A DNA stretch of 60,247 nt from a virus. Lineage: Duplodnaviria > Caudoviricetes. Shown here piece by piece: positions 1 to 37,679 of this stretch. Within the stretch, counting starts at the first letter, position 1; every line of letters starts with the position of its first letter. Location of the stretch: IMG/VR virus record IMGVR_UViG_3300023118_000002, positions 1-60,247 of that record; one strand, written 5' to 3'. The translations under genes were made by a program, and so were the position numbers. The notes under the pieces were generated by a model. The model saw only the letters and a list, made by a program, of their open reading frames with translations. It had not been told where the DNA came from and did not search any database.

Positions 1-127
1 AGGGTTTTGCTCACTTTCCGGTAGCGCGTTAGTTACTTCATCCATTAGATAGTGGCTCTAGGAAACGCGTAGATAAAGAGCACAATACCCAGTACAAGGT
101 TGAATGCTCCGATGAGAGACAGCCCGG
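1..127. repeat. 127 bp end overlap, identical to 60121..60247; indicates a circular/complete assembly
   Basis: Exact identity of both ends; 127 is a common assembler k-mer; the repeat cuts through genes. Confidence 0.95.
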
Positions 128-251
128 TACTCACTCCGGAAGACATACCTACGCCACGTGCCATGTAGGACCAGAATCGCAGAATGTATGCAATACCAAT
201 GATCAAGGCAAGGACCGCGATGAAAAAAAGCAGGAGGTTAAGGAAGAGCAT
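45..251 (-). CDS. small two-TM membrane protein
   Basis: Two hydrophobic stretches; GAAAGG upstream; stop overlaps the start of the next gene across the circular junction. Confidence 0.75.
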   Translation of the reverse strand: MLFLNLLLFFIAVLALIIGIAYILRFWSYMARGVGMSSGVSTGLSLIGAFNLVLGIVLFIYAFPRATI

Positions 252-372
252 GGTAGTACCTTTCTAAAAGTTAGTGAGGGGCGCAATTATCTCTAGGGGG
301 GATGAGATTTTGCTGTCTTTTATATCTGGCCTAATCGGGGGAACCGGCCAAGAGCCCACATCAAATATGTTA

Positions 373-1956
373 CTAGCGGTTCATCGAACGGCGGCGAATC
401 ACAACGCTGGCTGCGAAGAGAATCACACCGAAGATGAAGATCCCAAGAGCAATGGCACTCGTGGAGTTGGTGTTGGAGCTCGCACCAGTTGATGCAAGAA
501 CTTCAGCCGGGACAGGAGTCGTCTTGACAACTACCGGAGCAATCGTCTCGACAGGAGCAGGAGTCGTCGGCGTAACAACTACCGGGGGCTCCACAACAGG
601 CGGCTTTGCGTACTTCAGATCGAAGCAGTCACCCTTTGCTGCAACGAGAGTCGCTCCGTCACCCTTGGCATAGGACGAACCAGTCTGCCAATGGATGGAA
701 GTGATCTTGTTGTGCGGGTAGGCCGCGGCGATCTCAGCAATGGTCTTGCCAAGGAACACGTTCTTGCTACCGACATTCGCAACCGAGGCCTGAGTGACAT
801 TGTGATCGGTGATGGAAAGGGAGTTGTAACCACCCAGTCCGTCGCCAGTCAGGTCCACCACGAACCGGAAGAAGATGCCGTTTCCGACAACATCCTTATC
901 GGTCCAGTTGATGCCCGTAAAGCCCTGCAGGTTGCCGTTGGTCGGGTAACCGAACTCCACCGGAGTCTTATCGCCCTGGCTCACAAACGACTTGCCATCT
1001 GCAATATCTGCAGGAGCGTGGTCATCTGACTCAGTGTAAGCGCCACCGACGAACGTACACTTCTCGCCTGCAACCGGAGGAGCGACGTAGCAAGCAGCCG
1101 AAGCGTCTGTGCTTTGAGTTACACCAGTTGCAGGAAGCACGACGAGCGTCTGAGAAAGCAGGCCAACGACCTTGGTTCCCTTCGGGTACTTCGCATCAAA
1201 GCCAGGTCCAACTTTCTGAACGGTGGCAATATACGTACCAGGTCCCGTGTATGCCTTGTTCAAATATACGCGGAAGCCGTCACCCTCGTACCCGTTCGGG
1301 TTCTGGGCAGCAGGCCAACTCGTCAGAGGCAGCAATCCAGCAGTGTCACACGTGGGGGGATTGACCGCAAGCGGCCCAACCTCGATTGTGGTAACGGTGC
1401 AGGCGGGGGTAGTGAAGACGTTGTAAACCTGACCGGAAGCCGGCCAAGACTCGTCTCCTCCGTTGAGAACACCCTTGGTAACTAGAGCGGTCGTCTTCGC
1501 ATCATCCGCGTAGAGATCGAACTGGTAAGTCGTCCCACACTTGGTAGCGAAACTGTCGAACTGGTGGACATCCGTGCTGGTGGTCAGACCGTCATGCACG
1601 AGTGCCTGGGGGAATTTAGGCTGCAAGTTGAGCGCGCCCTCCCAGATAGCCGCGTGGTACGTCACGACGGGTGCCGTTTTCGTCTCCTGCACCGGCTCCG
1701 TGGACACCGGCGTAACCTCTGTGACGGGGTCCGGGGAAGTAGACTTCGGGAGTTCCGAGGGCGTAACGTTCGGCTCGGAAACCGGCTTCTGGGCTTCGAC
1801 TGGCGTCGTCGACTCGACGGTAGGGGTCTCGGTGACGACCTGAGCCGTATCCGTGGGCGTGCCGACCTCGTCTGCTGTGGCGGGGCCGGCCAGTGCTAAA
1901 CCCCCGAAACCGAGGGACAGGACTAGTCCTGCTGCTGCAAAGATCTTTTTCATCAT
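373..1956 (-). CDS. secreted sortase-anchored (LAxTG) cell-surface protein
   Basis: Signal peptide, Pro/Thr linkers, C-terminal LASTG + TM helix + RRRS tail; AAGGAG RBS. Confidence 0.85.
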   Translation of the reverse strand: MMKKIFAAAGLVLSLGFGGLALAGPATADEVGTPTDTAQVVTETPTVESTTPVEAQKPVSEPNVTPSELPKSTSPDPVTEVTPVSTEPVQETKTAPVVTYHAAIWEGALNLQPKFPQALVHDGLTTSTDVHQFDSFATKCGTTYQFDLYADDAKTTALVTKGVLNGGDESWPASGQVYNVFTTPACTVTTIEVGPLAVNPPTCDTAGLLPLTSWPAAQNPNGYEGDGFRVYLNKAYTGPGTYIATVQKVGPGFDAKYPKGTKVVGLLSQTLVVLPATGVTQSTDASAACYVAPPVAGEKCTFVGGAYTESDDHAPADIADGKSFVSQGDKTPVEFGYPTNGNLQGFTGINWTDKDVVGNGIFFRFVVDLTGDGLGGYNSLSITDHNVTQASVANVGSKNVFLGKTIAEIAAAYPHNKITSIHWQTGSSYAKGDGATLVAAKGDCFDLKYAKPPVVEPPVVVTPTTPAPVETIAPVVVKTTPVPAEVLASTGASSNTNSTSAIALGIFIFGVILFAASVVIRRRSMNR

Positions 1957-6773: not shown

Positions 6774-6796
6774 GAGGGTCTCCTTTCAAGAGGGGT

Positions 6797-17228: not shown

Positions 17229-18017
17229 TTATAGTGAGCTGAGTTGAAAAGTATCTTCGCTTATTTGAATAACCGTAGGCCACGTCAGTTCAGCAGTATC
17301 GCTAGTAACCATGTGGACAGCCTCATCTGGACCGCTAATTGTAGCCGTTCCATCACCGTTGTCGGTAACTTTAAATATAGCTGTTGCTTCAAAGAGCGCA
17401 AGCACCTCAAGAATTGAAGGGAAATGCGAAGGTGTAGTCTCGGTACCGTACAAGAGATTCTCAAGTGCGAGCATGGTAGAGGTATAAGCCTTTGTAGAAT
17501 CCACAAAAATATGAGATGTGGGTCTTGCCCCTGGAACGTAAGCTGGAGTGGTAGAGAGATCCCAGTTAAAGGTCTCGGCGTCTACATCTCCATTAAGACT
17601 AGCATGATCTTTTGATGCTGGTTTCAAATATCCATTGTAGACCAGATGTAGAAGGTACCCCCGAGCAGTACCCTCCACATCTGAACCAAGCAAACTCCGA
17701 TATGAGAGATTGAATGGTGGTCTAAATTGCCCGCTAAAAGCCGGCTGTGCAAACCCATCATAGGGTAACATCTCATCAGGATACGTGTATGCCTCTATCG
17801 ATGCTGAGAAAGTTCCAAGATCAACTTGATTTACCTTCTTTTGACCATCAATATAAAGAACCGTTTGACTGTCGTTATCATCCGTTTCTTTTATAGACAA
17901 CAACCCATTCCAAGGAACACCGATGCCTGATTTGGGATAGAACACTCCACGGTCCAGGCCGGTTTCAAAATATCGAGAACCAGCCAGATCCCACTGAAGT
18001 CTCATGCTAGCTCCCAA
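17229..18017 (-). CDS. major-tail-protein paralog 3
   Basis: W...G.R.FETG.DRGV, VPWNGL, IEAYTYPDE, GY.LHLVYN shared with 19233..20108. Confidence 0.85.
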   Translation of the reverse strand: MGASMRLQWDLAGSRYFETGLDRGVFYPKSGIGVPWNGLLSIKETDDNDSQTVLYIDGQKKVNQVDLGTFSASIEAYTYPDEMLPYDGFAQPAFSGQFRPPFNLSYRSLLGSDVEGTARGYLLHLVYNGYLKPASKDHASLNGDVDAETFNWDLSTTPAYVPGARPTSHIFVDSTKAYTSTMLALENLLYGTETTPSHFPSILEVLALFEATAIFKVTDNGDGTATISGPDEAVHMVTSDTAELTWPTVIQISEDTFQLSSL

Positions 18018-18648
18018 ATATAGATACGATCTCCGCCATTGTAGGCATCCGAGGATCTACCCCTAGAGAGCCATACAGAATGTTTTCAACAGCAGTGATA
18101 TGTGCCAAAGTGGCAAGAGTCGAATTGATAACCAAATGAGCAGATGGCTTGAAGCCCGTAATAACCGGCGGAACTGTAGTAACAGCCCAACTCAAGGTCA
18201 AAGGCTCAACATTATCACCGATTGTACTACGGTCTCGATCAGCGGGCTTTGCAAGAGCATTGTATACTAGGTGTAGCTTATACCCATGGTTTTCTGCTTC
18301 TACATCGTTACCTATGAGAGTGCGATACGAAAAGCCAAACTGCTTACGAGGCTGCTGAGTAATGAAAAGTCCAGCATAGATGCTAGAAGTACCATCGCAC
18401 GGCCCAAACTCCGCCGGGGCAGAAAAGGCTTCAATGGTTGCATTAAACTCTTCAGCACTTGAGATTTGAAGGAATTTGATTCCATCCAAATAGTAGGCTT
18501 CCGGTTCTCCGCCTGACGGTGCCTCTTTCACCGATGTCAAGCCGTTCCACGGTACGCCCGCAGCTGCGTTTGGGGGAAACAGAACACCCCGATCTACACC
18601 GGTCTCAAAATTGCGAGTACCAGTTGCACCCCAAACTAGCCTCGTCAT
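18007..18648 (-). CDS. major-tail-protein paralog 2
   Basis: Same motif series as the major tail protein. Confidence 0.85.
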   Translation of the reverse strand: MTRLVWGATGTRNFETGVDRGVLFPPNAAAGVPWNGLTSVKEAPSGGEPEAYYLDGIKFLQISSAEEFNATIEAFSAPAEFGPCDGTSSIYAGLFITQQPRKQFGFSYRTLIGNDVEAENHGYKLHLVYNALAKPADRDRSTIGDNVEPLTLSWAVTTVPPVITGFKPSAHLVINSTLATLAHITAVENILYGSLGVDPRMPTMAEIVSIFGS

Positions 18649-18651
18649 TTG

Positions 18652-19203
18652 TTAACCCTTCGTATTGAATTTAGCCTTACGTTCTGCGTTCAGATCTCGC
18701 TGCAGCTGTGCAGCTTCCTTCTTAGGCATCATCTTTTTCTTAGGATCGTTCTTGATGTTCACAACTCGAATGAGCGTAAGCAAACGATTAAGATGCCAGT
18801 CCTGAACTTGAAAATCTATTTGCAACGCAACGAGCCAGTAATAGATAATCTCGGCGGTTACTACCTCACCTGAGTTACCTTTAGGCGCGTTGGGATTGTC
18901 ATTAAACCAGGTAGCTGTCATCTTTCGATTGATGTAGGCACCTACCTCGTCGATTACTGGGTCCGGAATGTACGCGTAAACCTCCGGGGGAATTTCCTCG
19001 GAAAGCGTCATGCATCGGATGTAATCTAAAGTCTCTTCTGTGGTTCGCGCTTCCTTACCAAGGAATGGCTTTTCCCACTTTTGCTCCCATTTTGACAGGG
19101 AGACAAGAGAGTGCTCTAACGTGATCTTGGTCTCTTGCGTGTAGATGAAACGATTAGTCTCATCATTGAAGAGTTCCTGTTGTGGGATCGTAATCGTGAG
19201 CAC
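18652..19203 (-). CDS. tail assembly chaperone (single ORF)
   Basis: Follows major tail; LEHSLVSLSKWE and WHLNRLLTLIRV blocks; GAAAGGAGG before GTG 19203. Confidence 0.65.
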   Translation of the reverse strand: MLTITIPQQELFNDETNRFIYTQETKITLEHSLVSLSKWEQKWEKPFLGKEARTTEETLDYIRCMTLSEEIPPEVYAYIPDPVIDEVGAYINRKMTATWFNDNPNAPKGNSGEVVTAEIIYYWLVALQIDFQVQDWHLNRLLTLIRVVNIKNDPKKKMMPKKEAAQLQRDLNAERKAKFNTKG

Positions 19204-19232
19204 TCTCTTGCCTCCTTTCATTCTGTCAGGAT

Positions 19233-20108
19233 CTAGACGAAGTCGTAGAACCAGGTGTTGTCGGTCAGATCCGGGAAGGAGTAACCGTTTGCGGGCTCTG
19301 CACGAACCAGCGTGTCCTTCGTAAGGACCTTAGCGCCCGGCGTGTACAGCACACCAGTCTCGTCGTTGTAGTAGTTGACACCAACAACGGTCGGGATGGT
19401 AAGCGTGTGCGTACCAGACACGTAAGCCGGCTGGGTCGGAGTAACTTCGTTAACCGTACCGCTGAAGAACGCAAGAACTGCAGCGGGAGACGGAAGGTAA
19501 GCATCCTGCCCAACAGAACCGTAAATTGCCTGCTCGAGCGCTGCAAGACCAGCCGGGTCGACCTTCGTCGAATCGATGATGATGATTGCAGACGGCTTGA
19601 GACCGGGAACAGGAATCGGCGTAGTCGTGAACTTCCACGAGAACGTGATCGCGTCAGGCGAGTCGTTGACGGTCGCGTAAGCCTTCTCGGAAGGAGCAGC
19701 AAGTGCACCCCACACAAGATGGATCTTGTAACCGTAGTCCTGGCCCTCAACATCGTTACCGACGAGCGTCTGGTACGAAAGACCAAACGTACGGCGAGAC
19801 TGCTGACCGACGGAAACACCCGGGCTCGGAGTTGCGGTGCCATCGCACTGGGCAAACTCGTCGGGGTATGTGTAGGCCTCGATCGTGCCGGCGAACTCTT
19901 CCGCTGAGACCAGGCTCAGGTAGTTGATGTTGTCGGCGTACTTTTTGGTGACTTCAGCGCCAGAAGGCGACTCGGTAACAGTCGTAAGACCGTTCCAAGC
20001 TACACCCTCAACGTATGCACCAGTATTGTCCGGGAGGTACAGAACCCCATGACTAACACCGGTCTCGTACTCGCGCTCACCAGTCTGATCCCAAAGGAGC
20101 TGAGACAT
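19233..20108 (-). CDS. major tail protein with C-terminal Ig-like domain
   Basis: Tail-tube motifs; GC-biased third codon positions suggesting high expression. Confidence 0.9.
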   Translation of the reverse strand: MSQLLWDQTGEREYETGVSHGVLYLPDNTGAYVEGVAWNGLTTVTESPSGAEVTKKYADNINYLSLVSAEEFAGTIEAYTYPDEFAQCDGTATPSPGVSVGQQSRRTFGLSYQTLVGNDVEGQDYGYKIHLVWGALAAPSEKAYATVNDSPDAITFSWKFTTTPIPVPGLKPSAIIIIDSTKVDPAGLAALEQAIYGSVGQDAYLPSPAAVLAFFSGTVNEVTPTQPAYVSGTHTLTIPTVVGVNYYNDETGVLYTPGAKVLTKDTLVRAEPANGYSFPDLTDNTWFYDFV

Positions 20109-20767: not shown

Positions 20768-22774
20768 TTACGCGGTACGAGTGAACGTCCAGTCGCGGTC
20801 GCTGTCGTGCTGGATTCCGTAGTTCGGAGCCGGAACGGCCTCGATGTCGAAAGTAGCGTTGACGGCGATAGCAGGCTGTGCACCCGAGTTCAGGACTGCG
20901 CCAGTGTTCGCGTTCTTGTAGATCACGCCAGTAACGGCCGGGATCGTGACAACACCAGTGCCGTTGACGAAGGTCGGAGCCTGAGCAACGACCACGTGGT
21001 CAGCGTTGATGACGAACGTGACAGCCGACTTCGGCTTGGTCAGCGCACCGGAGATGCGAGTCTCCAGCAGGTACTTCTGCTGGTTGTAGTCGATGTCGAA
21101 GAAGTCGAAGAGGTTGATCTCTCCACCAGCGTCAGCACCAACGGTGTAGTCCGCGAGGTTAACCGCGATACCAATGATGTCGGCGTTGTCCTCCATGACC
21201 TCGACGGTCACGATGTCGGCGACGGTCAGGGCAGCTGCGAGCTCTGCCTTGGTTGCGTACAGACGACGACCCAGGGTGTCCTTCACCAGGATGAGCTTCG
21301 TGAAGACAGCACGAGTGGTGTAGAAGGTGGGGGTACCGGTACCCTTGTAGTTGTTCAGACCCACAACAACAGCATCGATCAGGTCGTTCGGCGCGAGGGT
21401 CGAGGACAGCGGAACGGTGGTGTTGTACATGTCGACGTCGTACGCGATCGGGCGGACGGAGTCCTCGTCGATCTTGTCGTCGTCGTCGGACTCGCGGTTG
21501 TCACCAACGAGGATGGCACGCGCGATTTCCTCGTCGAGCATGACGCGCATCTCAGCCTGAATCCAGACCAGGATGTTGACCTCGGTGATGTCGATGATGT
21601 CATCGCGGTCGAGCTTCTGCTTCTTGTAGACCGTGGTCGGCGTGGTGATGCGACGCAGGAGCTTGATGACCTCGTCCTTCTTGAGGTTACCCTTGACGTA
21701 ACCCTTCGCACGAGCCTCATCTGCCGTCAGGTCAGCCGAGAACGACTTGATCCGAGCAAACGGGCTGTGGTGGGTACCATCGAGAACGTTCTGCACCCAC
21801 TCCATACGACGGGAGACATAGGTGATGCCGTTCTGGTCCAGCTTGGCGTCGGGGAACAGCAGGTCGATGTTCTCGATGCCGTAGTCCGCCGCGTGAGCGA
21901 GGAACGACTGCTTGAGCGAACCGAACTTCGGGCCGTCATCGAGGATGGTCTGAAGCTGAGCCGAGGTGAGCTTCGGACGCTGGGCGCCGTGTGCCAGCGT
22001 GTCCCCGTTCTGCTCGAAGGCGTTGCGCATGTTTTTGATTCCTTCCTGAATCGTTTCGTCGACGTGAGCAAGGAACTCTTCGTCATCAAGTACTGCGGAG
22101 TGTGCTACGGTGCTGCTCGAAGTGGCCTCTTCAACGGCGGCGCCGATGACGTACTCCACAACTTCGGTCTGCTTCGGGGTGAGAGTCTTGAGAATGTCTT
22201 CGACAGTCTCGTTCTCATCCGTTACAACAGTGGACTCGTGCTGAAGCTTCTGCTCCTGCTCGTCGTCCGTCTTGGTGGTGATCTTGTCTCCCACAATTTC
22301 TCCTTCGGGACTTTCGTGCTGGAGCTCTTCTCCAGTGAAAATTACTGCTTCGTCTTCGATGACATCATAGGTTCCGTCACCGTGTGCTAGACTGACATTG
22401 TCAATCTTGGCTTCCATGTTTGCGCCCTGCATTACGAGACTTACTTCCGTAATGTCACCATGCTGGACCAAAGAACCAAGCTGCTGAAGGTTCTTAGCAA
22501 AGATAGAGAGGCTCTCAATGTCACCGTTCTGAACGAGCTGCTTGCCCATCTGACCAGACTCGGTGTCATTAAAGAATCCATAAGTGTAGATGCTGCCATC
22601 TCGGTTCTCGAGAATAGCGTGACCAAGAACATTGTCGAGGTTATCATGACGATGCTTCCAAACTAGCGGGACGGTAAATTTGTCCTGGTGCTTGAAAGCG
22701 TCGGGCATGATAGTCCGTCCATCGCTGCACTTGATACCACTCTTAGTTGCCCATCCACTAAAATCTGCTTCCAT
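20768..22774 (-). CDS. fused prohead protease - scaffold - HK97-fold major capsid protein with C-terminal Ig-like domain
   Basis: HK97-type protease motifs (VWKH, VLGH, SLSI, EVSLV..GAN), acidic linker, capsid region (LDEEIARAILVGD; ETRISGAL.KPKS). Confidence 0.9.
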   Translation of the reverse strand: MEADFSGWATKSGIKCSDGRTIMPDAFKHQDKFTVPLVWKHRHDNLDNVLGHAILENRDGSIYTYGFFNDTESGQMGKQLVQNGDIESLSIFAKNLQQLGSLVQHGDITEVSLVMQGANMEAKIDNVSLAHGDGTYDVIEDEAVIFTGEELQHESPEGEIVGDKITTKTDDEQEQKLQHESTVVTDENETVEDILKTLTPKQTEVVEYVIGAAVEEATSSSTVAHSAVLDDEEFLAHVDETIQEGIKNMRNAFEQNGDTLAHGAQRPKLTSAQLQTILDDGPKFGSLKQSFLAHAADYGIENIDLLFPDAKLDQNGITYVSRRMEWVQNVLDGTHHSPFARIKSFSADLTADEARAKGYVKGNLKKDEVIKLLRRITTPTTVYKKQKLDRDDIIDITEVNILVWIQAEMRVMLDEEIARAILVGDNRESDDDDKIDEDSVRPIAYDVDMYNTTVPLSSTLAPNDLIDAVVVGLNNYKGTGTPTFYTTRAVFTKLILVKDTLGRRLYATKAELAAALTVADIVTVEVMEDNADIIGIAVNLADYTVGADAGGEINLFDFFDIDYNQQKYLLETRISGALTKPKSAVTFVINADHVVVAQAPTFVNGTGVVTIPAVTGVIYKNANTGAVLNSGAQPAIAVNATFDIEAVPAPNYGIQHDSDRDWTFTRTA

Positions 22775-22796
22775 TTTGACTCTTACTCCTTTCGTG

Positions 22797-23510
22797 CTAG
22801 AGATGGTAATAGTGCTTTAGACTTTTATGCTTCTTGCTAGATTTGCGTTTAGCCTTTGCTTTTCCGCGAGCTTTCTTCTTTGGCGGTGGTTTGACATAGC
22901 CCGCAACCTGATCGTGGATGTTCTGCTTTTCAGTATCCGCAATGTTTTGGTATTTAGCTTGCAAGTCATCCATTGCTTTAGAATAGGCTTCGCGCGCAGA
23001 CTTTACTGCATCCGAGAGTTCGTTTGAAATTCGTGCACGGTCTCTCGCGGCTTGACCAGCGGCGTTGTTATACTTGTCGCCAGATTCTTTAGCAGCTCTA
23101 GCTTTGATCTGACGATTCTGTTGCTCGATAAATGCACGCTGTTTAGGCGTAGCATCGGCAGGTATTGGATTTAGTTTGACAGCTGTATTAGCTGCCACAA
23201 GACCCTTTACAATGTCATCGAGTGTAGAATTGATTTGATCAACTGCAGCTTGGGCTTTCGCAACGAGCGCCTCAAGTTTAGCCTTTTGAGCTTCTTGAGA
23301 TGATGTTAGCTCAGCCTTTTTAGCTTTAGAGATGCTATCCCTAGCAACCGCATAAGTATCTCTTTGCTCCTTAGAAGTAAGAGCCGAACGCGCATTCTTA
23401 TCAGCCAACTGCTTAGTACGCTCGTAATATTCATGAGCTTTTACTGGATCGTAGTAGGGAGATGAATAATGCGCTAAACTTTGCTCGTCATACGTCGGAG
23501 TGTCATCCAT
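22797..23510 (-). CDS. coiled-coil protein with LAH leader and basic C-terminus; putative internal virion protein
   Basis: SLAHYSSPYYDP at N-terminus; Lys-rich tail; between portal and capsid. Confidence 0.65.
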   Translation of the reverse strand: MDDTPTYDEQSLAHYSSPYYDPVKAHEYYERTKQLADKNARSALTSKEQRDTYAVARDSISKAKKAELTSSQEAQKAKLEALVAKAQAAVDQINSTLDDIVKGLVAANTAVKLNPIPADATPKQRAFIEQQNRQIKARAAKESGDKYNNAAGQAARDRARISNELSDAVKSAREAYSKAMDDLQAKYQNIADTEKQNIHDQVAGYVKPPPKKKARGKAKAKRKSSKKHKSLKHYYHL

Positions 23511-24913
23511 TACTTACCCGATCCGATTTTCTTAATCTTGGCTTCCAGTTGAACCATTGCGTTCTCAAAGATTGCGTTCTGTTCATCTGAAATATCCGGA
23601 CTGGGGGTTGGTCCTGCAGTAATGGCCTGCTGTTCACCACCTGGACGAATTGGGGTTGATGGAATCTCACCCAAATCTGTAGAGCTGGGTGCAGGAACGC
23701 CTGCCTGAATCGGAAGATTCTTGTTCAGGAGCTTATCCGCATTCGGGTCACTAGAAGGCTTAAAGCCAAGCAATCCGCGGAATTCGTTCGAGGACAGAAT
23801 CTCGTTTCGAGTGAGTTTATCCGCAAGCTCCGCAAGATCCTGGATAGCCAGAAGCTTGAAGGGATCACGGTAGTACTCAATCGACTGACCCTGGGCACGA
23901 GCGGTCTTGGTAAGGAAAGACGATTTCATAGACTCGGTAATTGCACCGAGAATAGGCTCAATTGTACGATTGTAGTAATTAAGCAGCGTCTTTTCATCGG
24001 CAGTACCGTTGAACACCGACTCGGCAAGACCCAGTTGAGAATATAGCATTCCGGTCAAGAACTGCACCTGTGCAAGCATGTTGTTCTCAACAGGACGGTT
24101 CAGCTGAGTAATCTTTTCAGTAGCATCCGTGTAGGCTACTCCGTACTTAGATCCCTTAAGCTGATTCTCAATATCCCGAGCACGCTCTTCAGCCTGATCC
24201 TTACGTGTCTCGTTCTTGACAGCATATGGAAGCTGAATGATCAGGTCGAGCTTACCCGAACTCGCCGCTTCGTCGATTGAGTCAAGAAGACTAAGCTTCC
24301 GAAGCAATCGCTGATACGTTGAGTTGGGCTCGTTCATTACCGAATATAGCGGGTTCTCAACAATAGCCACAACGTCTTTTGGCATTGTAATCTCTTCTTT
24401 GACACCCTTTATGTCATTGTAGACCCGGAGGCGAACATGGCGGGGGTACCAATTGATGATCTCACCTACACGCAATGTGAAAATATCGTATGTACCGGAG
24501 AGAAGCGGAGTATCCGAAGTATCAATCGGAACGATAGCAATGTATCCCTTGTCAAAGAGAGTCATTGCTACATCCTGACGGAAAGCTCGAGCACCCTGGT
24601 CAATATTTGCTTTAAGCGTCAAGCAGTTGTTAAGGCCGCTCTTTGCATCGCGCAGATAGTGCTTGTTCTCATCCAAATATACGTGGTTCATGTTGATTGC
24701 AGCCACGTCGATTCCAACGCGAGTGTAGATGGAAGTAATGATAGAACGATCATTACTAACAGCCATTCGGTTACGACCAGGACTAGCGCCAGAGTTTACA
24801 GACCCACCAAATCCCATTCGGGTTGGACCCTGAACAGGCTGATCCATAAACGCATTCCAAGCGTGTGCCAGTTGTTTAACTCCGTTTGCGGCTCTATCAA
24901 ATAGTGATGCCAC
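23510..24913 (-). CDS. portal protein
   Basis: Size, position, HK97-like motifs (YYNRTIEPIL; ILSSNEFRGLLGF.P). Confidence 0.9.
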   Translation of the reverse strand: MASLFDRAANGVKQLAHAWNAFMDQPVQGPTRMGFGGSVNSGASPGRNRMAVSNDRSIITSIYTRVGIDVAAINMNHVYLDENKHYLRDAKSGLNNCLTLKANIDQGARAFRQDVAMTLFDKGYIAIVPIDTSDTPLLSGTYDIFTLRVGEIINWYPRHVRLRVYNDIKGVKEEITMPKDVVAIVENPLYSVMNEPNSTYQRLLRKLSLLDSIDEAASSGKLDLIIQLPYAVKNETRKDQAEERARDIENQLKGSKYGVAYTDATEKITQLNRPVENNMLAQVQFLTGMLYSQLGLAESVFNGTADEKTLLNYYNRTIEPILGAITESMKSSFLTKTARAQGQSIEYYRDPFKLLAIQDLAELADKLTRNEILSSNEFRGLLGFKPSSDPNADKLLNKNLPIQAGVPAPSSTDLGEIPSTPIRPGGEQQAITAGPTPSPDISDEQNAIFENAMVQLEAKIKKIGSGK

Positions 24914-24948
24914 TACATGTCACCTCCTTTCGAGATTCGAATTGAAAG

Positions 24949-25923
24949 TTATTTGACGACATACTTCCCATTCTTAAGGATAAGTTTAATGACCTCGTGA
25001 CCGGTGTCAATTGACTTAACGCCTTTAATGGTGTTGTATCCGCGATTTACAATTTCAGGATGCGCAAGTAAATAACGGCCGCCGTATTTGACAGTTGCGT
25101 AACCAGCAACTAAAATTCCTGCACCGATTAAATCCTTCTTAAGCGAGTATTCTTTCTTTGGGGCCAAACGGTTGTTATAATCTTTCCGAATAGCACTAGC
25201 TTTGGTAAAAGAATTCTGGCGGTTAGCACGATCGATCTTTGCTTGGTTTGCCGATTCAATTTCAGCTTTATGCCGACCCCAGTGCATACCAAGAACACCA
25301 TGATGAGCCAAAGAATCATCTTCAGGATCAAACTGATTCAGAGCTCGCTCGATGTAATTAATAACCTCTGCTGGATCTAATTCATCGTGTTTAATTGAAG
25401 AGACAGGAATGTTAAGTTCCATAGATGTTAATCCACCCCAAATATCATCAGCTGGACTAAGAATCTCAGTTGTCTTAAAACCCATTTTTTCATAAATATG
25501 CAAAGCGTCCGGTGATTCACCGGGAACTTCAAGCGTTAACTTAGAAATGCCTTTGTCGCGCGCATAATCAATAACACCTGAAACTGCAGCCGAAGCATAC
25601 CCATTCCCACGATGAGCTTTCTTAACGCCCAACCAAACAAGATTTAGAGAATCAGGAGTATCTTGATTGAAAGCGGCTTCTCCAACTTTTTCACCCTTGG
25701 CGTTTTTAAGAGTGAAGCTATGATACTGCTTAACTCTTTCCGCATAACCAGGACTTAGTTTAGAAAGAAGCTTGGGTATGCCAGATGTTGCATCTCGAGA
25801 CACCACAAGCGTTCCGCCACCTTTTAGCTTCTTGGTAAAGGTTGGTCGAGGTTCTTCTTTACGATCGCCCCAGTGCATACCAAGAACACCGTAGTGAGCA
25901 AGGGTCTTATTCAAATATGACAT
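24949..25923 (-). CDS. GNAT acetyltransferase flanked by two LAHxGVLGMHWG modules
   Basis: Acetyl-CoA motif V.K.HRGNGYA and A..IYEKMGF. Confidence 0.8.
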   Translation of the reverse strand: MSYLNKTLAHYGVLGMHWGDRKEEPRPTFTKKLKGGGTLVVSRDATSGIPKLLSKLSPGYAERVKQYHSFTLKNAKGEKVGEAAFNQDTPDSLNLVWLGVKKAHRGNGYASAAVSGVIDYARDKGISKLTLEVPGESPDALHIYEKMGFKTTEILSPADDIWGGLTSMELNIPVSSIKHDELDPAEVINYIERALNQFDPEDDSLAHHGVLGMHWGRHKAEIESANQAKIDRANRQNSFTKASAIRKDYNNRLAPKKEYSLKKDLIGAGILVAGYATVKYGGRYLLAHPEIVNRGYNTIKGVKSIDTGHEVIKLILKNGKYVVK

Positions 25924-25931
25924 TCTACTCC

Positions 25932-27713
25932 CTACTCAAAGGCGGCCTTGTTAGCTTTATAAGCTACGTATGCATCCAGGAGGGCTGCCACGTTATCAAT
26001 TTTGGCTTCTTGACGCTTTTTGTAAAGCTTACGGTTACCATTGGTGTCTTCCATGGTTACAGCGTTACCCATAGCGAACATCATAAGTGCCTCATCAAAT
26101 ATAAGCATGCGAGTTTTAGACGTCAAAGTCTCTTCACTCAAATGCTTAAGTTCACCAAGAGGAACAGACTCGGTTCGAGCTCCCTGAATGACTTTCTCTA
26201 TGCCAAAGGGACCATTCATAGCTTCCCATCGCTTTACAAATTCGGCAGCATTGTAAGGGTCATACCCAAACGCACGCACGTCGTACTTGAAAGTTTCAAT
26301 GTGATGCTCGAGGTCATCGTAAACTTCCATCATGTCAAGGTTGATACCCTGCAAAACGTGAAGTGTACCTTCGTTCAAGAACTCTTCATACTTAGCTCGC
26401 ATAGCACCAGGAAGTTTGTCCATAGTGTTTTGCGAGATGTAGCTGCGAGTCTTGATTCCAAAGGAACCGTCGCTCATTGGGAAGAGGAATGTGAAAGCTG
26501 TAAAGTCATCACCTTGCGAAAGGTCCGCACCCATAGCGCACATCATACCGGCGAAACGCTGATCACGATGTGGAACTACAGGAATCGTCTCTTCATAAGT
26601 GAAGAAGTAAGTGAAGCCTTCCATTGGAATGCCAAAACGCTTGGCTAGGATGTCATTACGAACCGAAGGGTTAATCACGGCACGCTCAACATCCTGCGCA
26701 TACACTTCATAAGGTACTGTAATACCTAGGTTAGGATTAGCCTTAAGCCACATGCTTTCATCCGCTACTTCTTCGATAGAATCGAGTTTGTAGTGGAAGA
26801 TTGAAATGTGAGGAGCAGCTGGACCTTCGCCGCGAAGTATAGTAGCAAGTTCCATTTTGATTGTATCGCCAGCACCGTTTCGTACGGTACCTTCAGAGCT
26901 GATAGCGACAATCAGATAGTCATCCAGCTTTGACGCACCCTGCTCAATTGCGCCGATTACGTCTTCACGGACGTCGCCGGAAAGCCATTCGTCAACGGTA
27001 GAGATCTTAGGGCGTAGACCTTGCAGCTTGTTGATCGACATCGGTCGAATTTCAAGAAGTGAGTCGGTTACGAAGTTCTGGATTCCCTTTTTAGTGGAGG
27101 CCAAGTGCTGACGAGCGGCGCGGTTGCCTGTCGTGTTCTGCAATGACCCGAGAGTCAAGAACTTAAACAGTGGACCTTGTGCTCGAGTGATTGCCGTTCT
27201 AAACGGAGACATCACTTCTTCGGCTTGTTTCATCGTAGGCGCAGTTGTGATCTGATGAGTTGTTGAAGTATCGATGTTAAGGAAGTAAGCTTGAATGAAG
27301 TAAGCATACATCGACTTAGCAGCGCCTCGAGCAACAATCAGATACTGCTTAACGGTCAAACGCTTCTTGATCAGTTTTGTTTCGTGATGTCCGCCGTGAT
27401 TGTCCTTTGATGGAACGTACACGGTTCTTTCAACGAAGTAAAACCAAGCAAGAAGCTGTTCTGCCCAAAGCTTAAACGATTCAAGCATGTGAAGCTTGTT
27501 ACCGTCAGTAAGCGTAAGTTCGGTTTCACAATACGAAATAAAACCATCAATGGCTCTGTCATCGTAATAATAGAAAGGGTTGGCGATGAGCTCTTCAATG
27601 CGGTTCATCTCCATAGCAATTTCCTTGTTTACAGGAATATCGCCGCGGAGGACTGCATCGCGGAAAGCTGCAAAATACTTTGGTGTAGCTGTGTTTGATA
27701 GGGCCATCGCCAA
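25932..27713 (-). CDS. terL: terminase large subunit
   Basis: Walker A ARGAAKS, Walker B STVDE, nuclease GADLSQGDD and KIDNVAA. Confidence 0.95.
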   Translation of the reverse strand: MAMALSNTATPKYFAAFRDAVLRGDIPVNKEIAMEMNRIEELIANPFYYYDDRAIDGFISYCETELTLTDGNKLHMLESFKLWAEQLLAWFYFVERTVYVPSKDNHGGHHETKLIKKRLTVKQYLIVARGAAKSMYAYFIQAYFLNIDTSTTHQITTAPTMKQAEEVMSPFRTAITRAQGPLFKFLTLGSLQNTTGNRAARQHLASTKKGIQNFVTDSLLEIRPMSINKLQGLRPKISTVDEWLSGDVREDVIGAIEQGASKLDDYLIVAISSEGTVRNGAGDTIKMELATILRGEGPAAPHISIFHYKLDSIEEVADESMWLKANPNLGITVPYEVYAQDVERAVINPSVRNDILAKRFGIPMEGFTYFFTYEETIPVVPHRDQRFAGMMCAMGADLSQGDDFTAFTFLFPMSDGSFGIKTRSYISQNTMDKLPGAMRAKYEEFLNEGTLHVLQGINLDMMEVYDDLEHHIETFKYDVRAFGYDPYNAAEFVKRWEAMNGPFGIEKVIQGARTESVPLGELKHLSEETLTSKTRMLIFDEALMMFAMGNAVTMEDTNGNRKLYKKRQEAKIDNVAALLDAYVAYKANKAAFE

Positions 27714-27721
27714 CCTCCTTT

Positions 27722-28141
27722 CTAAAGGTTCTTCATGATTACCATTGCCGCTTTCACACCATACTTGTTGAGGATGGTGGCGCCCCTAGCTACGGCTTTT
27801 TGGCCGACAGGGGTCCGCAAAAGAGCTGCGGCCGCCGTAACAGTAGTTCCAACACCGATAAGAACTTTAACCGCATCATTGCCTTTTTTGATTTTGGCAA
27901 TAGCGGTCTTGTCAGTCTTCAGCTTGGAATATTGCTGTTCAAGCTGCAAACGCTCATTAAGTTTTCTAAGATCTGCGTTCGAAAGGTTGCGAGAGCCCTG
28001 TCGATTGAGCTCACGTGCCTGTGCGTGATCCGGGTGCGGGGGAGCTTTAATTTTTTTGCTTCGTGAGATATCATCCTTACGACGACCCCAGTGCATTCCT
28101 AGAACACCGTAGTGCGAAAGAGTCTTTCCAAATGTCGGCAT
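27722..28141 (-). CDS. basic protein with LSHYGVLGMHWG leader; putative internal virion protein
   Basis: Leader shared with the GNAT protein; LSNADLRKLNERLQLEQQY helix. Confidence 0.7.
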   Translation of the reverse strand: MPTFGKTLSHYGVLGMHWGRRKDDISRSKKIKAPPHPDHAQARELNRQGSRNLSNADLRKLNERLQLEQQYSKLKTDKTAIAKIKKGNDAVKVLIGVGTTVTAAAALLRTPVGQKAVARGATILNKYGVKAAMVIMKNL

Positions 28142-34030: not shown

Positions 34031-36766
34031 CTACTTGTCAAGTGCTGAGTACAGTGTACTGGTAGAGATACCTAGTCTAGATGCAATCTCCGCAACTGTA
34101 TAGTTGCCTGATGCTAACATGGACTGGGCTAATGCAAGGCTAGCATTGTTAACCTTGGGCCTATCTCTTGGTGTGGCGAGGGATCTAAGATCTTCAACAT
34201 CTGTATTGTCAATGATCTGCTTAAGCTTACTGGCGGTAATGGCACCGGATTGAATGGCGTTCCATTCTTCATCAGTAATCTTAATCTTAATCTTACCAGC
34301 ACCAACCCTAGTACGTGCCTCAGTAAGGGCCATACCATTGACCTTCTTGAGGTCTGCCTTATCAATACCGGGGTTCGCTTCAACCTTAGCCCTTACAATA
34401 GACTGGGCCAACAACTGGGCTTGTCTTTCGAGGGGGGCATTCTTTAGAGCAATGTTTAGCTTAGCATTTAGAGACTTAACCTCATTACTGTAAACACTCT
34501 TAGCAGACTGGCTGTATGGAATGTTCTTAATAGTGAGGGACTCTTTTCTAGCTTCATTAGCAAGAGCCTTTAGACTATTAGCATGATCAGCATAGATGCG
34601 TTCAATTAGGGTACCACCATTACCAGACACAAGGGTATGTGCGTCATTGGTATAGGCGCCTTTCTTAACCTTCTCACGAGAGATGGTAACTTCACCCTTT
34701 TTGTTTGTATAGGTTTCATCAGCAATTACATAATGCTTGTTACCCTTAGCATCAGTCTCCCAATGAGAACCCTTTGGTACGTACATCTTCTCACCAGTAG
34801 CTGCATCAATAGGACCACCAAGGTGCACAGGCCGAGGCTTGCGAGCATCAATGTTTTTATCAGATGTAGTTCTAGAGATCAGTGTAGAGGCACCTTTTTT
34901 AGCACCATTCTGATACTTGCGCTTTAGCTCGTTAATGTTGTTGTCAAGAGCAGAAGCCTTGTAATCTAAGTTGTGTTTCTCAGCATCGATAACAACCATC
35001 GAATGACGAACAGCTCGAGCAATCTCACTTTCATGAGCACCCTTAATAGTCATGTCCGTAATTAGATTAGAAACATCACCCATAAGCTGTTGCTTAAGAC
35101 CGCCTGGATTCTTAGCTCCAGCAAGACCCTTAGTAGAATCTTTCGGAAGCTTGTACAACTCTTTAGGATCAAAGTTCTTAAGTCCACTAAGAGCGGCGGA
35201 AGTCTTAACTTTTCCGTCGTTATTAGGAATTACAAGAACTGTATCACCATCAAAGTCTGCACCTGACAGACGTTCTGCTACCTTGGCATTGATTCCAACT
35301 GCGTCCCTAGCATTCAAAGTAATTGAACGGCGAGCTTCCTTATTACTGTTGTTTACAGTAAGTTGTGGAATCTCAAAGATGCCACCATGAGGGTGACGAA
35401 CTAGAGTGACCACATCTCCATCGTGATACTTAGGAGCAAAGATTTCCGTTTCACTAAGACTGTTAATTGGAAGGATTACATGGTTTGCAGTTCTCGGAAG
35501 ACCAGTTGCTTGAAGTTTCACAGCTGAAGAATCAGCCTCGTCTGCATAAGTCTCGAGCAGCTTGCGCTTAACTCCAGGGTTTGTCAGAGCAAGGATGTCT
35601 TCTAGATCCGCACGCTTTGAGTTCTGCGTAAGATCCAACTGAGCTTTAGCAAGGGCCGGCGTCTGCTTCGAAAGGAACTGTGACGAGAAGTTATTAGACC
35701 AGGTGTACCAATCACCTTCCTCATTCACAATGTTCAGAGGCGAACGCTCAACCTTACCTGTCTTAGGATCTGTGTAACCCTTAGGCCGAGTAATAGAACC
35801 AAACGGATTCGATTCGTCTCCAGTCTGAGGCTTCAAAGCGTCTAGCTTGTTACCGGTATCTTTTTTGTTGGTATTGAACAGAATGTCAACGCCCTTAGGC
35901 AGATCATCCTTGTACATTGCCATACCCTTGATGTAGTGCGTACCATCAACAGGGACACGAACCTGAGCATAGTTTGCATTGCCCAAAGAAATGTCAGCGA
36001 CACCCGGACGAAGGTACATCACACCATCAGAAGCAGCACCACCGTCAGGACCATACTTAACCTCAACACGCTTCGAACTGATGTTAACAAGAGGGCCCAA
36101 ATCGGCGGCTTTCTTATTAGTATCAGGATCGATGTATTCAGCGATGCTATGGATTTTATCCTTGTTGTGATAAACCTCTTTAGCAGTTGTAGATTCGTGT
36201 ACTAAGACCTTCAAAGAAGTCTTCTTACCGGTACCTACCTGAGTTACGTCGGTGTAACGAATAACGTAACCCTGGTCCTTAAGCATAGCAATGCCCGTCT
36301 TAAGAGTCGTGTCACTGATTCCCATGTGGTTCTCAGTACCCTTACCGACATCGACATACTTGTACTTGTCAACGTTGTCTTTAAGGATGTTAGCAACAAC
36401 CTGGTTACGATTAGCACGCTCCTGAACAATGGGGTCCATAAGAGCCCGAACAGAAGATTCGTTCATACCCAACTGCTTACCGATTGCGCTGTTGCTCATA
36501 CCCTTATCTTTAAGAGCCATGATACGACGAGTTTTCTCGGCACGAACATCGTTAGAAGAGATAGAGCGGCGAGCACGGAGATCAGCTGTAGAACTAAAAC
36601 CCAGTCCCTCAGCAATCTTAACCTCACTCAAACCCTTCTTCTTAAGATCTTCATAGGCTGCTAGAAAGCTGACGCCACTTTGGTAAGGGTCTTCACCTGA
36701 ACCCCAAGGATAGCGTCCTGAGTGATGCGGAGTACCATAGTGAGCGAGCGTTGATTCGTCATTCAC
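34031..36766 (-). CDS. single-subunit two-barrel RNA polymerase (YonO/cellular RdRP-like) with HTH domains
   Basis: SGADFDGD at 35243-35266 preceded by LVRHP; upstream SDG and AQVR..YIKGM; three HTH-like segments; AAGGAG before GTG 36766. Confidence 0.8.
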   Translation of the reverse strand: MNDESTLAHYGTPHHSGRYPWGSGEDPYQSGVSFLAAYEDLKKKGLSEVKIAEGLGFSSTADLRARRSISSNDVRAEKTRRIMALKDKGMSNSAIGKQLGMNESSVRALMDPIVQERANRNQVVANILKDNVDKYKYVDVGKGTENHMGISDTTLKTGIAMLKDQGYVIRYTDVTQVGTGKKTSLKVLVHESTTAKEVYHNKDKIHSIAEYIDPDTNKKAADLGPLVNISSKRVEVKYGPDGGAASDGVMYLRPGVADISLGNANYAQVRVPVDGTHYIKGMAMYKDDLPKGVDILFNTNKKDTGNKLDALKPQTGDESNPFGSITRPKGYTDPKTGKVERSPLNIVNEEGDWYTWSNNFSSQFLSKQTPALAKAQLDLTQNSKRADLEDILALTNPGVKRKLLETYADEADSSAVKLQATGLPRTANHVILPINSLSETEIFAPKYHDGDVVTLVRHPHGGIFEIPQLTVNNSNKEARRSITLNARDAVGINAKVAERLSGADFDGDTVLVIPNNDGKVKTSAALSGLKNFDPKELYKLPKDSTKGLAGAKNPGGLKQQLMGDVSNLITDMTIKGAHESEIARAVRHSMVVIDAEKHNLDYKASALDNNINELKRKYQNGAKKGASTLISRTTSDKNIDARKPRPVHLGGPIDAATGEKMYVPKGSHWETDAKGNKHYVIADETYTNKKGEVTISREKVKKGAYTNDAHTLVSGNGGTLIERIYADHANSLKALANEARKESLTIKNIPYSQSAKSVYSNEVKSLNAKLNIALKNAPLERQAQLLAQSIVRAKVEANPGIDKADLKKVNGMALTEARTRVGAGKIKIKITDEEWNAIQSGAITASKLKQIIDNTDVEDLRSLATPRDRPKVNNASLALAQSMLASGNYTVAEIASRLGISTSTLYSALDK

Positions 36767-37346
36767 CGAAGGTCTCCTTATCGATCTCAGTAATGCGGCG
36801 GTCAAAGGTTTTGATTGAATCGATGATGTGCATCAAGTCATCCAGATCCGGAACATAGATCTCAACTGCATCGCCCTTGTAGATACGAAGTTCGATGTCG
36901 ATGTCGGCCGGGTTGTGACCATACTCGAGACAAAAGATGCAGGCATAGATTTCAAGCTGGCGCATGTAAGTACGAGTAGTACCAGTCTTGAGATCATGAA
37001 TGCGAAGCATCCAACGTTCAGTCTTGGGATCGTAACGGAATGAAATGGTGTCAGCTGTACCGAAACAATTTGGAGAGTAGTACAAAGGCTGCTCTGGCTG
37101 CATTTTGAAACCGATACCGTCATTGACGTAAAGGTTCATAGTCTTACGAACGTCAGGCATTTTAACCCGAAGCGCGATCAGTTCTGCAGCGAGAGCGTGC
37201 TTACGATCTCCGAGCCTAGCTGCCTGAGCAGTGTAGACTCTTTTGTCCATAGCTTCTTCATCATAGTTAGTCCAGCTCGGGTTGCTGGGTGCCATGAGGT
37301 TAGCGTGCTTACCTGCCAACTCGTAGTGCGGATTGAAGCGCATCAA
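36759..37346 (-). CDS. PD-(D/E)XK Cas4/RecB-like exonuclease
   Basis: GDRKH, PEQ, FGTAD, IHDLKTG, QLEIYA motifs. Confidence 0.8.
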   Translation of the reverse strand: MMRFNPHYELAGKHANLMAPSNPSWTNYDEEAMDKRVYTAQAARLGDRKHALAAELIALRVKMPDVRKTMNLYVNDGIGFKMQPEQPLYYSPNCFGTADTISFRYDPKTERWMLRIHDLKTGTTRTYMRQLEIYACIFCLEYGHNPADIDIELRIYKGDAVEIYVPDLDDLMHIIDSIKTFDRRITEIDKETFGE

Positions 37347-37617: not shown

Positions 37618-37679
37618 TTTCTCCTTTAGACAAAAAGGGAAGAATTGCAGAGCCAAAAGCTACTGATATTCTATCTCCT

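Follow-up and report, generated by a model that had tools for sequence, protein, structure and literature searches.

The DNA analysed here (the window, 60,247 nucleotides) comprises the whole 60-kb genome of a siphovirus that belongs to the ReqiPepy6 / 1706 / actinophage AM-AU-BI-DJ lineage. The features considered below are the following:

20768..22774, minus strand: protease-capsid fusion ORF, 668 aa, made up of protease, spacer and capsid domain
22382..22774, minus strand: prohead protease domain, fusion residues 1–131, ending at the invariant site VSLAH131 (Pfam Peptidase_S78, phrog_3270)
21893..22381, minus strand: acidic spacer, a scaffold-like linker, residues 132–294, with six further [L/V]-x-H sites (His 153, 179, 225, 237, 262 and 294)
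20768..21892, minus strand: HK97-fold major capsid domain, residues 295–668, from structure alignment
22797..23510, minus strand: basic protein of 237 aa, pI 9.65 (phrog_11413), between portal and fusion gene
23510..24913, minus strand: portal gene, with QLAH at residues 14–17
24863..24871, minus strand: N-terminal portal site L15-A-H17, followed by AWNAF, conserved in relatives
24949..25923, minus strand: GNAT protein, 324 aa, with LAHYGVLGMHWG at residue 8 and LAHHGVLGMHWG at residue 205
25852..25917, minus strand: DUF7211 tag 1, N-terminus of the GNAT protein (PF23847, 36.3 bits)
25261..25320, minus strand: DUF7211 tag 2, with His207, inside the GNAT protein, separating its GNAT domain from a basic C-terminal module (PF23847, 39 bits)
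27722..28141, minus strand: basic protein of 139 aa, pI 10.7, with LSHYGVLGMHWG at residue 8
28070..28123, minus strand: DUF7211 tag, N-terminus of the 139-aa protein (PF23847, 38.9 bits)
34031..36766, minus strand: single-chain two-barrel RNA polymerase, 911 aa from GTG (phrog_4291, E 0), with helix-turn-helix segments at both ends
36695..36748, minus strand: polymerase tag L7-A-H9-Y-G-x-x-H-x-S-G-R-Y-P-W-G-S-G24 (GTG numbering), defined by conservation

The fusion protein matched Pfam Peptidase_S78 over residues 20–126 (22.5 bits, cut-off 21) and phrog_3270 (E 2e-219), and scored 21.2 with NCBIfam proheadase_HK97, under the cut-off of 59 for that model. Across 43 homologues, S90, H105 and H41 of the protease domain and H131 at its end were invariant, and H52 was at least 90% conserved; which of S90, H105, H41 and H52 are catalytic we presume from analogy rather than from a structural superposition. 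In the AlphaFold2 model, pLDDT was about 90 over residues 1–130 and below 50 at spacer residues 131–188 and 219–266, with helices at 191–218 and 271–295. VIA-align superposed residues 104..383 of the mature HK97 capsid protein (1ohg_A) on model residues 274..591 (Z 16.0, rmsd 5.6, 257 aligned), and Z values of 14–16.6 to HK97, GTA and actinophage capsids and to encapsulins place the HK97 fold at about residues 270–592. The mature capsid N-terminus is predicted to follow His294 or His262; a PDB sequence search with the fusion returned no solved relative that would give this end. The one PDB sequence match, a designed repeat protein aligned over 26 spacer residues, was judged spurious. The fusion gene has been described before, without mass spectrometry (Klyczek 2017; Giantsbane preprint).

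All seven [L/V]-x-H sites that an earlier note on this sequence had placed between the protease and capsid domains were recovered, their His codons starting exactly where it had put them (22382, 22316, 22238, 22100, 22064, 21989 and 21893; residues 131, 153, 179, 225, 237, 262 and 294). Every one of the seven His in fusion residues 127–300 thus has L or V at position -2, a number reached by none of 200,000 shuffles of the same residues. The comparison of site density with the remaining proteome, suggested in the same note, gave 7/7 His for the spacer versus 45/258 His with L or V at -2 for the rest (76 minus-strand proteins). The tripeptide LAH was seen 13 times, where 2.1 were expected (Poisson 4e-7), and hydrophobic-x-His occurred inside the first 30 residues of eight other proteins. 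As hydrophobic-x-His is a weak pattern on its own, its weight comes from conservation in relatives. Among 44 distinct fusion homologues, the share of spacer His in hydrophobic-x-His ranged from 5/9 to all; for cultured phages it was 7/7 in Lactococcus phages P092 and 1706 and 7/9 in ReqiPepy6. Over 264 spacer His from 45 sequences, the -2 residue was L in 56%, V in 9%, I in 7% and M in 2% (LIVM, 74%), and among 100 His of the capsid domain L was outside the seven commonest -2 residues. A chance origin of the spacer pattern was ruled out by the shuffles and by this conservation. Six of the seven sites fell in segments of pLDDT < 50 or at their borders in the AlphaFold2 model, and the seventh at the end of the last helix preceding the capsid domain.

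The L-x-H leaders reported earlier for the genes at 22797..23510, 24949..25923 (where the motif recurs internally) and 27722..28141, and for the polymerase, were likewise borne out. The three GVLGMHWG leaders are instances of the Pfam domain of unknown function DUF7211 (PF23847, a 25-position model), each scoring above its gathering cut-off of 27 bits, and in an alignment of 36 small tagged proteins H10, G12, G15, W18 and G19 were invariant. The putative targeting tag had been described as a single G-x(4-8)-WG element; this wording merges two conserved tags, HxGxxGMxWG and, in the polymerase, HYGxxRxSGRYPWGSG. Since the His is invariant in the aligned tags, there was no P1 variation to correlate with the spacer. 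The acetyltransferase assignment of the GNAT protein was clear (Acetyltransf_1, residues 68–149, E 5.4e-12, 46.4 bits, cut-off 20.7). Its C-terminal module comprises 117 aa with a pI of 10.1, a third LAH lies at residue 286, and the tag-GNAT-tag layout is repeated in the relative L014. The 139-aa protein was also considered as a small terminase because of its position; it matched no terminase family, and the same tag occurs on enzymes. Literature searches on DUF7211 and on the tag peptide found no paper.

The likeliest start of the polymerase is the GTG at 36766, which stands behind AAGGAG, and not the TTG at 36805; this start places the L of the tag at residue 7, matching the relatives. The long ORF (34031..36805) carries LAHYGTPHHSGRYPWG. 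The tag was present in 78/78 N-terminally complete homologues, and H9, G11, S16, G17, R18, Y19, G22 and S23 were invariant in 51. Residues 1–25 nevertheless had pLDDT < 50 in a model with a mean of 80, and a tag that is invariant yet disordered in the model is as expected of a linear motif. The leader gave no match to PF23847 at E ≤ 10 in a six-frame scan of the whole record, and none in hmmscan; as it shares only L-x-H-Y-G and W-G with DUF7211, we treat it as a separate, related tag. As to the enzyme itself, the catalytic DxDGD loop is found as DFDGD at residues 517–521 of the long ORF, and D504, F505, D506, G507 and D508 (GTG numbering) were invariant in 51 sequences. Foldseek retrieved QDE-1 (7y7r_A, E 1.5e-8, TM 0.32), in agreement with a two-barrel fold, as well as the Thermus phage polymerases 8f5m (P74-26 gp62, E 1.6e-6, TM to target 0.46), 8f72 (E 2.1e-6) and 8h2m (P23-45 gp96, E 4.8e-3).

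Two further head-module proteins carry the site in other contexts. The leader of the 237-aa protein reads SLAHYSS, with L at residue 12 and SLAH14 followed by YSSPYYDPVKAHEYY. A pattern scan of IMG/VR gave no close relatives of this protein; homologues were found instead in the phage collection, in 61 phage records. In 9/9 inspected N-termini of the family (window included), hydrophobic-x-His lies at residues 8–20 and is followed by a ...YDPVKA-x-EYY block. Relatives of the portal protein have hydrophobic-x-His with an AWN-type triplet at residues 7–16 in 48 of 52 distinct full-length N-termini. The AWNAF-type motif itself is kept in 52/52, and because the four N-termini lacking His-AWN retain it, the portal His may be structural.

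A 40-residue tag query matched 142 of 50,697 phage records at E ≤ 1, almost all of them in genera that encode the fusion (found in 247 records) and the polymerase (found in 250); the motif is restricted to the lineage that has the protease-capsid fusion. Across 80 related loci we counted 83 DUF7211-like tags in 77 ORFs, 54 inside the first 35 residues and 29 internal, with two to three tags between domains, in polyprotein-like fashion, in five proteins. Of 21 loci that extended 4 kb or more upstream of the fusion gene, 20 had a tag. Tagged ORFs of the related loci lay upstream of that gene in 44 cases and downstream in none. Rhodococcus phage ReqiPepy6 encodes eight tagged proteins. Unrelated enzymes bear the tag, namely GNAT and, in 6 of 22 larger tagged proteins, LigT/2H phosphoesterase. 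The cargo is basic (pI 9.3–10.7) and the fusion protein acidic (pI 4.6). The proposed L-x-H link between scaffold and cargo held up in that the same short motif occurs in the scaffold spacer and near the N-termini, or at domain joints, of head-module proteins and the polymerase, and this link is conserved across relatives infecting two phyla.

Database records of relatives bear on whether such proteins enter the virion, as had been suggested for the polymerase and an acetyltransferase. In the authors' GenBank deposit for Lactococcus phage 1706 (EU081845.1), which writes predicted functions as 'putative ...', orf7 and orf75 are labelled 'structural protein'. The product of orf75 is the polymerase homologue (38% identity over 1000 columns, with the same tag and DFDGD), and that of orf7 is doubly tagged (residues 32 and 181), with R or K after the His. 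The ReqiPepy6 record annotates gp106 as 'similar to 1706_gp75, structural protein'. These labels give record-level support to the idea that the polymerase and a DUF7211-tagged protein are packaged; the proteins concerned (1706 orf7 and orf75; ReqiPepy6 gp013, gp015–gp021 and gp106) are direct homologues with the same tags, fusion protein and polymerase. The untagged 1706 orf62 and orf71 are also labelled structural, so either the label covers co-purifying proteins or the tag is not required. The 1706 structural labels reportedly stem from virion mass spectrometry. Homology of the polymerase among relatives was already pointed out in a preprint (10.1101/842583). The 1706 and ReqiPepy6 records and the available text of this preprint draw no link between tag, His sites and packaging, and the available text of papers citing phage 1706 held nothing on its virion proteins. 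Tying the 1706 labels of orf75 and orf7 to the tag is new here.

The closest parallel is phage T4, whose protease gp21 cuts after L/I-x-E both in its scaffold and in basic internal proteins, within leaders of 10 residues (PMC9026906, available text). T4 gp21, IPI-III and Alt share with the window a code of hydrophobic residue, any residue and fixed P1, with many sites in the scaffold and one near the N-terminus of basic cargo; the T4 internal proteins are packaged into the head and leave it by ejection, and relatives differ in their sets of cargo (PMC9026906, same portion). Unlike in T4, the P1 residue is His instead of Glu, every capsid subunit carries the protease as a fusion, the tag also lies between domains, and the phage is a siphovirus of Gram-positive hosts; no sequence similarity was found. 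Whereas T4 removes the leader, the conserved part of the tag here lies C-terminal to the His and would be retained in the product. The head proteases of phiKZ (gp175) and SPN3US (gp245) likewise recognise a short motif at which they trim many packaged proteins; the inner-body or ejection proteins of these phages include virion RNA polymerase subunits delivered with the DNA (PMC10052503, PMC7411985 and PMC9026906, as far as their available text goes). These are giant myoviruses whose polymerases have several subunits and whose proteases cut after Glu, in contrast to the 60-kb siphovirus, single-chain polymerase and predicted cleavage after His of the window.

The best reading, to which we give a probability of roughly 60%, is a system of capsid targeting and processing that resembles that of T4 but is specific for His, and that includes trimming and ejection of the cargo; cleavage after His, the address role of the tag, its binding partner and ejection are inferred. 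The capsid subunit would be made as protease, acidic spacer and HK97-fold capsid domain. Once the procapsid has closed, the protease would cut after the His of hydrophobic-x-His (P3 hydrophobic, P1 His). These cuts would free the protease, chop the spacer into peptides of 12–46 residues able to exit, and create the mature capsid N-terminus after His294 or His262. In the putative cargo the same site, preceded by acidic residues, lies 7–25 residues from the N-termini of the 139-aa, GNAT and 237-aa proteins and the polymerase, and also at the joint of the GNAT domain and the basic C-terminal module. The residues after the His (GxxGMxWG; SGRYPWGSG in the polymerase) may serve as the address that brings the precursors into the assembling head, where the protease would then trim them. 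The basic products would stay with the DNA and probably be ejected with it, so that the infected cell would receive a ready-made polymerase and auxiliary enzymes. The polymerase, the acetyltransferase and other tagged head-region proteins are thus probably loaded into the head, trimmed and delivered with the DNA.

The same observations could be explained by an address that is not cleaved. Here the spacer would be cut, but the cargo tag would act as a pseudo-substrate or docking peptide, bound to the protease domain or another head component, and the cargo would be packaged uncut. Of the 264 spacer His, 55% are followed by A, S or G, whereas in the 78 tags the next residue is F, H or Y in 94%, and this shift from small to aromatic or His suggests that the tags might bind uncut. 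The conserved block sits after the His, and changing position 10 of the T4 leader stops processing while still allowing targeting (PMC9026906, available text). On the other hand, internal tags at domain joints, up to three per protein, resemble a polyprotein to be cut, and variation after the His is tolerated (R or K in 1706 orf7; E or I in three polymerase homologues). We regard uncut packaging as unlikely.

Somewhat less likely still is that the motifs are unrelated: DUF7211 and the polymerase N-terminus would be conserved for other reasons, for example to cap a module that binds DNA or membranes or to act as an assembly or packaging cofactor, the proteins would not be cargo, the spacer His would serve structure or metal or pH sensing, L-x-H would be coincidental, and the 1706 labels would reflect co-purification. 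The weakness of the pattern among other His of the proteome, the structural labels on untagged 1706 proteins, the basic modules with hydrophobic C-terminal stretches, and the place of the 139-aa gene directly upstream of the large terminase, frequently that of the small terminase, are all compatible with this. Against it, five conserved contexts (spacer, DUF7211, polymerase, 237-aa family and portal) have only an acidic run and hydrophobic-x-His in common, tags are limited to the head module, the polymerase and the fusion-bearing lineage, one tag sits on unrelated enzymes, and the 139-aa protein lacks a small-terminase family match. Cleavage by a host protease, or self-cleavage of each protein, instead of the fused prohead protease is very improbable: host Prp trims capsid and scaffold proteins of some staphylococcal phages, but the site is conserved across phages of Actinobacteria and Lactococcus, whose hosts differ, it travels with the fused protease, and the first site, the invariant H131, coincides with the end of the protease fold.

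The favoured targeting and processing system also has features in common with HK97, whose gp4 and gp5 share the S78 protease family and the capsid fold. The delta domain of HK97 gp5 is an N-terminal, scaffold-like precursor segment that is cut up and lost, but HK97 makes its protease as a separate protein, with a C-terminal tail that serves as the targeting element. We know of no cargo tag or His code in HK97. Phage polymerases carried in the particle include N4 vRNAP, gp66 of crAss-like phi14:2 and gp96 of Thermus P23-45, whereas packaging of the window polymerase is a prediction. The window polymerase has its two-barrel fold in common with the P23-45 polymerases and QDE-1 (PMC10770324, available text). 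The P23-45 virion polymerase is part of the tape measure protein, and that of the window a free 99-kDa protein of putative activity with a capsid-type leader.

A wider reading, which we put forward only tentatively, is that DUF7211 and its polymerase variant form a lineage-wide portable label (at least 247 cultured phages, Actinobacteria and Lactococcus). Any protein bearing it would dock on the fused protease, be cleaved after the His and enter the cell along with the DNA, and the polymerase would read a private promoter of the ACA-N3-CCTATAATGA type common to phages of two phyla. The repeated promoter-like motif ahead of early genes includes TATAAT, and the single published reading takes it as a host sigma-70-type promoter (PMC9671010), so an injected polymerase is not required by the data. 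If the wider reading holds, Gram-positive siphoviruses would gain early transcription independent of the host polymerase, together with pre-made GNAT and 2H phosphoesterase.

A literature search on prohead proteases, capsid targeting and internal proteins in actinobacteriophages returned no actinophage paper. If the targeting and processing system is real, it would add a prohead-protease specificity, cutting after His, for which we found no literature precedent, and assign a function to DUF7211. Head-carried enzymes have so far been known mainly from T4, N4, crAss-like and giant phages; a large and easily cultured group, spanning hundreds of SEA-PHAGES isolates and dairy lactococcal phages, would then package an RNA polymerase of its own together with exchangeable enzymes, and the tag could readily be used to load actinophage capsids with proteins.

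The window, 60,247 bases long, is an entire IMG/VR virus record. It carries a 127-base repeat at both ends, which marks a circular assembly, and 76 of its 91 greedily picked ORFs are on the minus strand. The head-region genes are listed here in gene order, followed by the polymerase ORF:

27722..28141, minus strand: 139-aa protein, first
25932..27713, minus strand: large terminase, second
24949..25923, minus strand: 324-aa GNAT (acetyltransferase domain) protein, third
23510..24913, minus strand: portal, fourth
22797..23510, minus strand: 237-aa protein, fifth
20768..22774, minus strand: 668-aa fusion (prohead protease, spacer and capsid protein joined), sixth
34031..36805, minus strand: polymerase ORF as listed

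The nearest cultured relatives were phages of Arthrobacter, Streptomyces, Gordonia, Rhodococcus (ReqiPepy6), Microbacterium and Curtobacterium, together with the Lactococcus 1706 group. The capsid-protease fusion of this lineage is described in a published account (Klyczek 2017, PMC5513430). Elsewhere in the genome, three paralogous genes lie in a row at 17229-20108 (-), encoding 291, 213 and 262 aa; the W-x-x-x-G-x-R-x-(F/Y)-E-T-G motif that the major tail protein has at its N-terminus is shared by all three, of which just the first matched phrog_2645. Duplication of the major tail gene in this lineage was noted in the Giantsbane preprint. Two DUF6353 paralogues (2877-3671 and 55234-56133, both (-); E 3e-68 and 2e-65) are located far apart in the non-structural part. 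A 527-aa protein at 373-1956 (-), whose N-terminus resembles a signal peptide and which matches no Pfam family, lies where the G+C content of the window is highest (55.6%), and 49522-53358 (-) encodes a 1278-aa primase-polymerase fusion (DUF5906 and phrog_4210 DNA polymerase) typical of the lineage.

The earlier note had proposed that the protease cuts after His at L/V-x-H sites in the spacer, and that cargo bearing the same motif, including the polymerase and the acetyltransferase, is packaged and injected. The seven spacer His codons were found where it had placed them (near 22382, 22316, 22238, 22100, 22064, 21989 and 21893), all with L or V at position -2. These seven are every His present in fusion residues 127-300, and none of 200,000 shuffles reached seven L/V-x-His. 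In the comparison with the rest of the proteome that the note suggested, L or V stood at -2 in 45 of 258 other His against 7/7 in the spacer, and the LAH tripeptide was observed 13 times versus 2.1 expected. Cleavage after every His would give predicted spacer peptides of 12-46 residues.

The same context was present in relatives. From 80 IMG/VR loci, 47 complete fusion ORFs were called, representing 44 distinct relatives, in which the hydrophobic-x-His share of spacer His ranged from 5/9 to all, while the rest of the spacer was poorly conserved. Position -2 of the 264 spacer His was L in 56%, V in 9%, I in 7% and M in 2%; for capsid-domain His (n=100), L was absent from the seven commonest residues at this position. 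The fusions of Lactococcus phages P092 and 1706, with an overall identity of about 34-35%, had 7/7 spacer His in context, and ReqiPepy6 had 7/9.

An AlphaFold2 model of the fusion, built on an alignment of 43 homologues, was divided as follows:

residues 1-130: confident protease domain, pLDDT about 90
residues 131-188: pLDDT under 50
residues 191-218: helices
residues 219-266: pLDDT under 50
residues 271-295: helices
residues from about 310: capsid domain

Six of the seven spacer His fell in the low-confidence stretches of this model or at their edges, and the invariant His131 is exactly at the end of the protease fold. The capsid part matched HK97-fold capsids with Z of 14-16.6. Alignment with the mature HK97 chain (104..383) begins at model residue 274, which could place the mature capsid N-terminus after His262 or His294.

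The four leaders in which the earlier note had seen the motif were as described. DUF7211 (PF23847) scored over the cut-off in three of them, but the polymerase leader was unmatched even at E <= 10. The three DUF7211 tags at 25262-25317, 25853-25908 and 28071-28126 are 71-82% alike in DNA over 56 bases. The 80 loci yielded 83 DUF7211-like tags, spread over 77 ORFs; 54 of the tags lie among the first 35 residues, the other 29 are internal, and five proteins have two or three tags between domains. Their logo reads acidic-acidic-F-L-(A/E)-H-(F/H/Y)-G-V-K-G-M-K-W-G-V-R-K. Of the 21 loci whose sequence extends 4 kb or more upstream of the fusion gene, 20 have a tag, and where a fusion gene had been called, all 44 tagged ORFs lay upstream of it and none downstream. 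A 40-residue tag query (E <= 1) matched 142 of 50,697 phage records, almost all in genera that have the fusion (247 records) and the polymerase (250 records); ReqiPepy6 encodes eight tagged proteins.

For the polymerase, the start is probably the GTG at 36766, behind AAGGAG, rather than the listed TTG at 36805. This GTG lies 13 codons into the listed ORF, and its use gives both the N-terminal length and the Leu at residue 7 found in relatives. Among 80 polymerase loci compared, 78 had a complete N-terminus; 77 of these matched hydrophobic-x-H-x-G ... SGRYP(W/Y)G at residues 6-26, and the remaining one was off by one residue. H9, G11, S16, G17, R18, Y19, G22 and S23 were invariant in 51 aligned polymerases, and residues 1-25 were the least confident part of the polymerase model (mean pLDDT 80). 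Invariant yet low in predicted confidence, this N-terminus has the signature of a linear motif that would be read by a partner. The protein has DFDGD, and its model matched QDE-1 (E 1.5e-8) and the two-barrel polymerases of Thermus phages. A preprint (10.1101/842583) had earlier proposed, on the basis of HHpred and the DxDGD motif, that this 'HTH protein' is a lineage-typical YonO/crAss-like polymerase, with no virion claim in the relevant part of that source.

Portal and 237-aa proteins carry related N-termini. Among 52 distinct portals, hydrophobic-x-His followed by AWN was found in 48, and AWNAF was kept in all 52; in the 237-aa family, each of the nine members examined has hydrophobic-x-His between residues 8 and 20, then YDPVKA-x-EYY. 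Compared with one another, the five conserved contexts (spacer, DUF7211, polymerase, portal and 237-aa) have only an acidic run and hydrophobic-x-His in common.

In the 1706 authors' GenBank record (EU081845.1), products inferred by similarity are labelled 'putative ...', and the plain label 'structural protein' is given to orf6, 7, 11, 12, 17, 62, 71 and 75. We found two DUF7211-type tags in orf7 (462 aa; residues 32 and 181), and orf75 (1029 aa) shares 38% identity with the window polymerase over 1000 columns and has the same leader and DFDGD. The 'structural protein' labels reportedly come from virion mass spectrometry. They were also given to orf62 and orf71, which have no tag, and the label is thus no proof of specific packaging. 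The ReqiPepy6 gp106 record bears the note 'similar to 1706_gp75, structural protein'.

A rigid promoter-like motif, AAAACA-N3-CCTATA(A/G)TGAA (also written ACA-N3-CCTATAATGA), occurred in 10 copies with up to 3 mismatches, versus 0.19 expected, all on the gene strand. Six copies at 4155-6815 (-) precede small genes behind the tail genes, and further copies are at 37679-37698 and 57972-57991; the motif is followed by a conserved leader with a ribosome site. Its core recurs in the same region of the Lactococcus phages (8 copies in P092, 9 in 1706). It may serve the phage polymerase itself or be a promoter of the host type, and the one paper on it, dealing with Gordonia phage Vardy, reads it as a sigma-70-type -10 element (PMC9671010). 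The motif is compatible with an injected polymerase but does not make one necessary.

Public sources already contain, separately, the fusion gene, the polymerase homology and the 1706 labels; the link joining them is not public as far as our literature search reached, which found no paper on DUF7211, the tag peptide or capsid targeting in actinophages. By analogy, the arrangement is most likely a T4-like capsid-targeting scheme with a hydrophobic-x-His code. T4 gp21 cleaves after L/I-x-E at many sites of the scaffold but at a single site in the 10-residue leaders of basic internal proteins, which are ejected after trimming (PMC9026906). In the window phage the cut code would be hydrophobic-x-His, and the protease is built into each capsid subunit. 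The spacer is acidic (pI 4.6 for the whole fusion) and the cargo basic (pI 9.3-10.7). Three features speak against a one-to-one match with T4: His is followed by a small residue in the spacer but by an aromatic one in the tags, the conserved tag block comes after the presumed cut, and the polymerase tag is a separate variant.

In annotated relatives, tagged genes are named acetyltransferase, phosphoesterase, RNA ligase or peptidase. Among the 22 larger tagged proteins, six have an N-terminal LigT/2H phosphoesterase domain and one the tag-GNAT-tag layout of the window. In the six related IMG/VR loci concerned (L011, L012, L032, L038, L052 and L076), the tagged head-module protein has this LigT/2H domain upstream of an internal tag. 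Some phage enzymes of the 2H phosphoesterase type degrade the cyclic nucleotides used as defence signals, so the tagged 2H protein may be an injected counter-defence.
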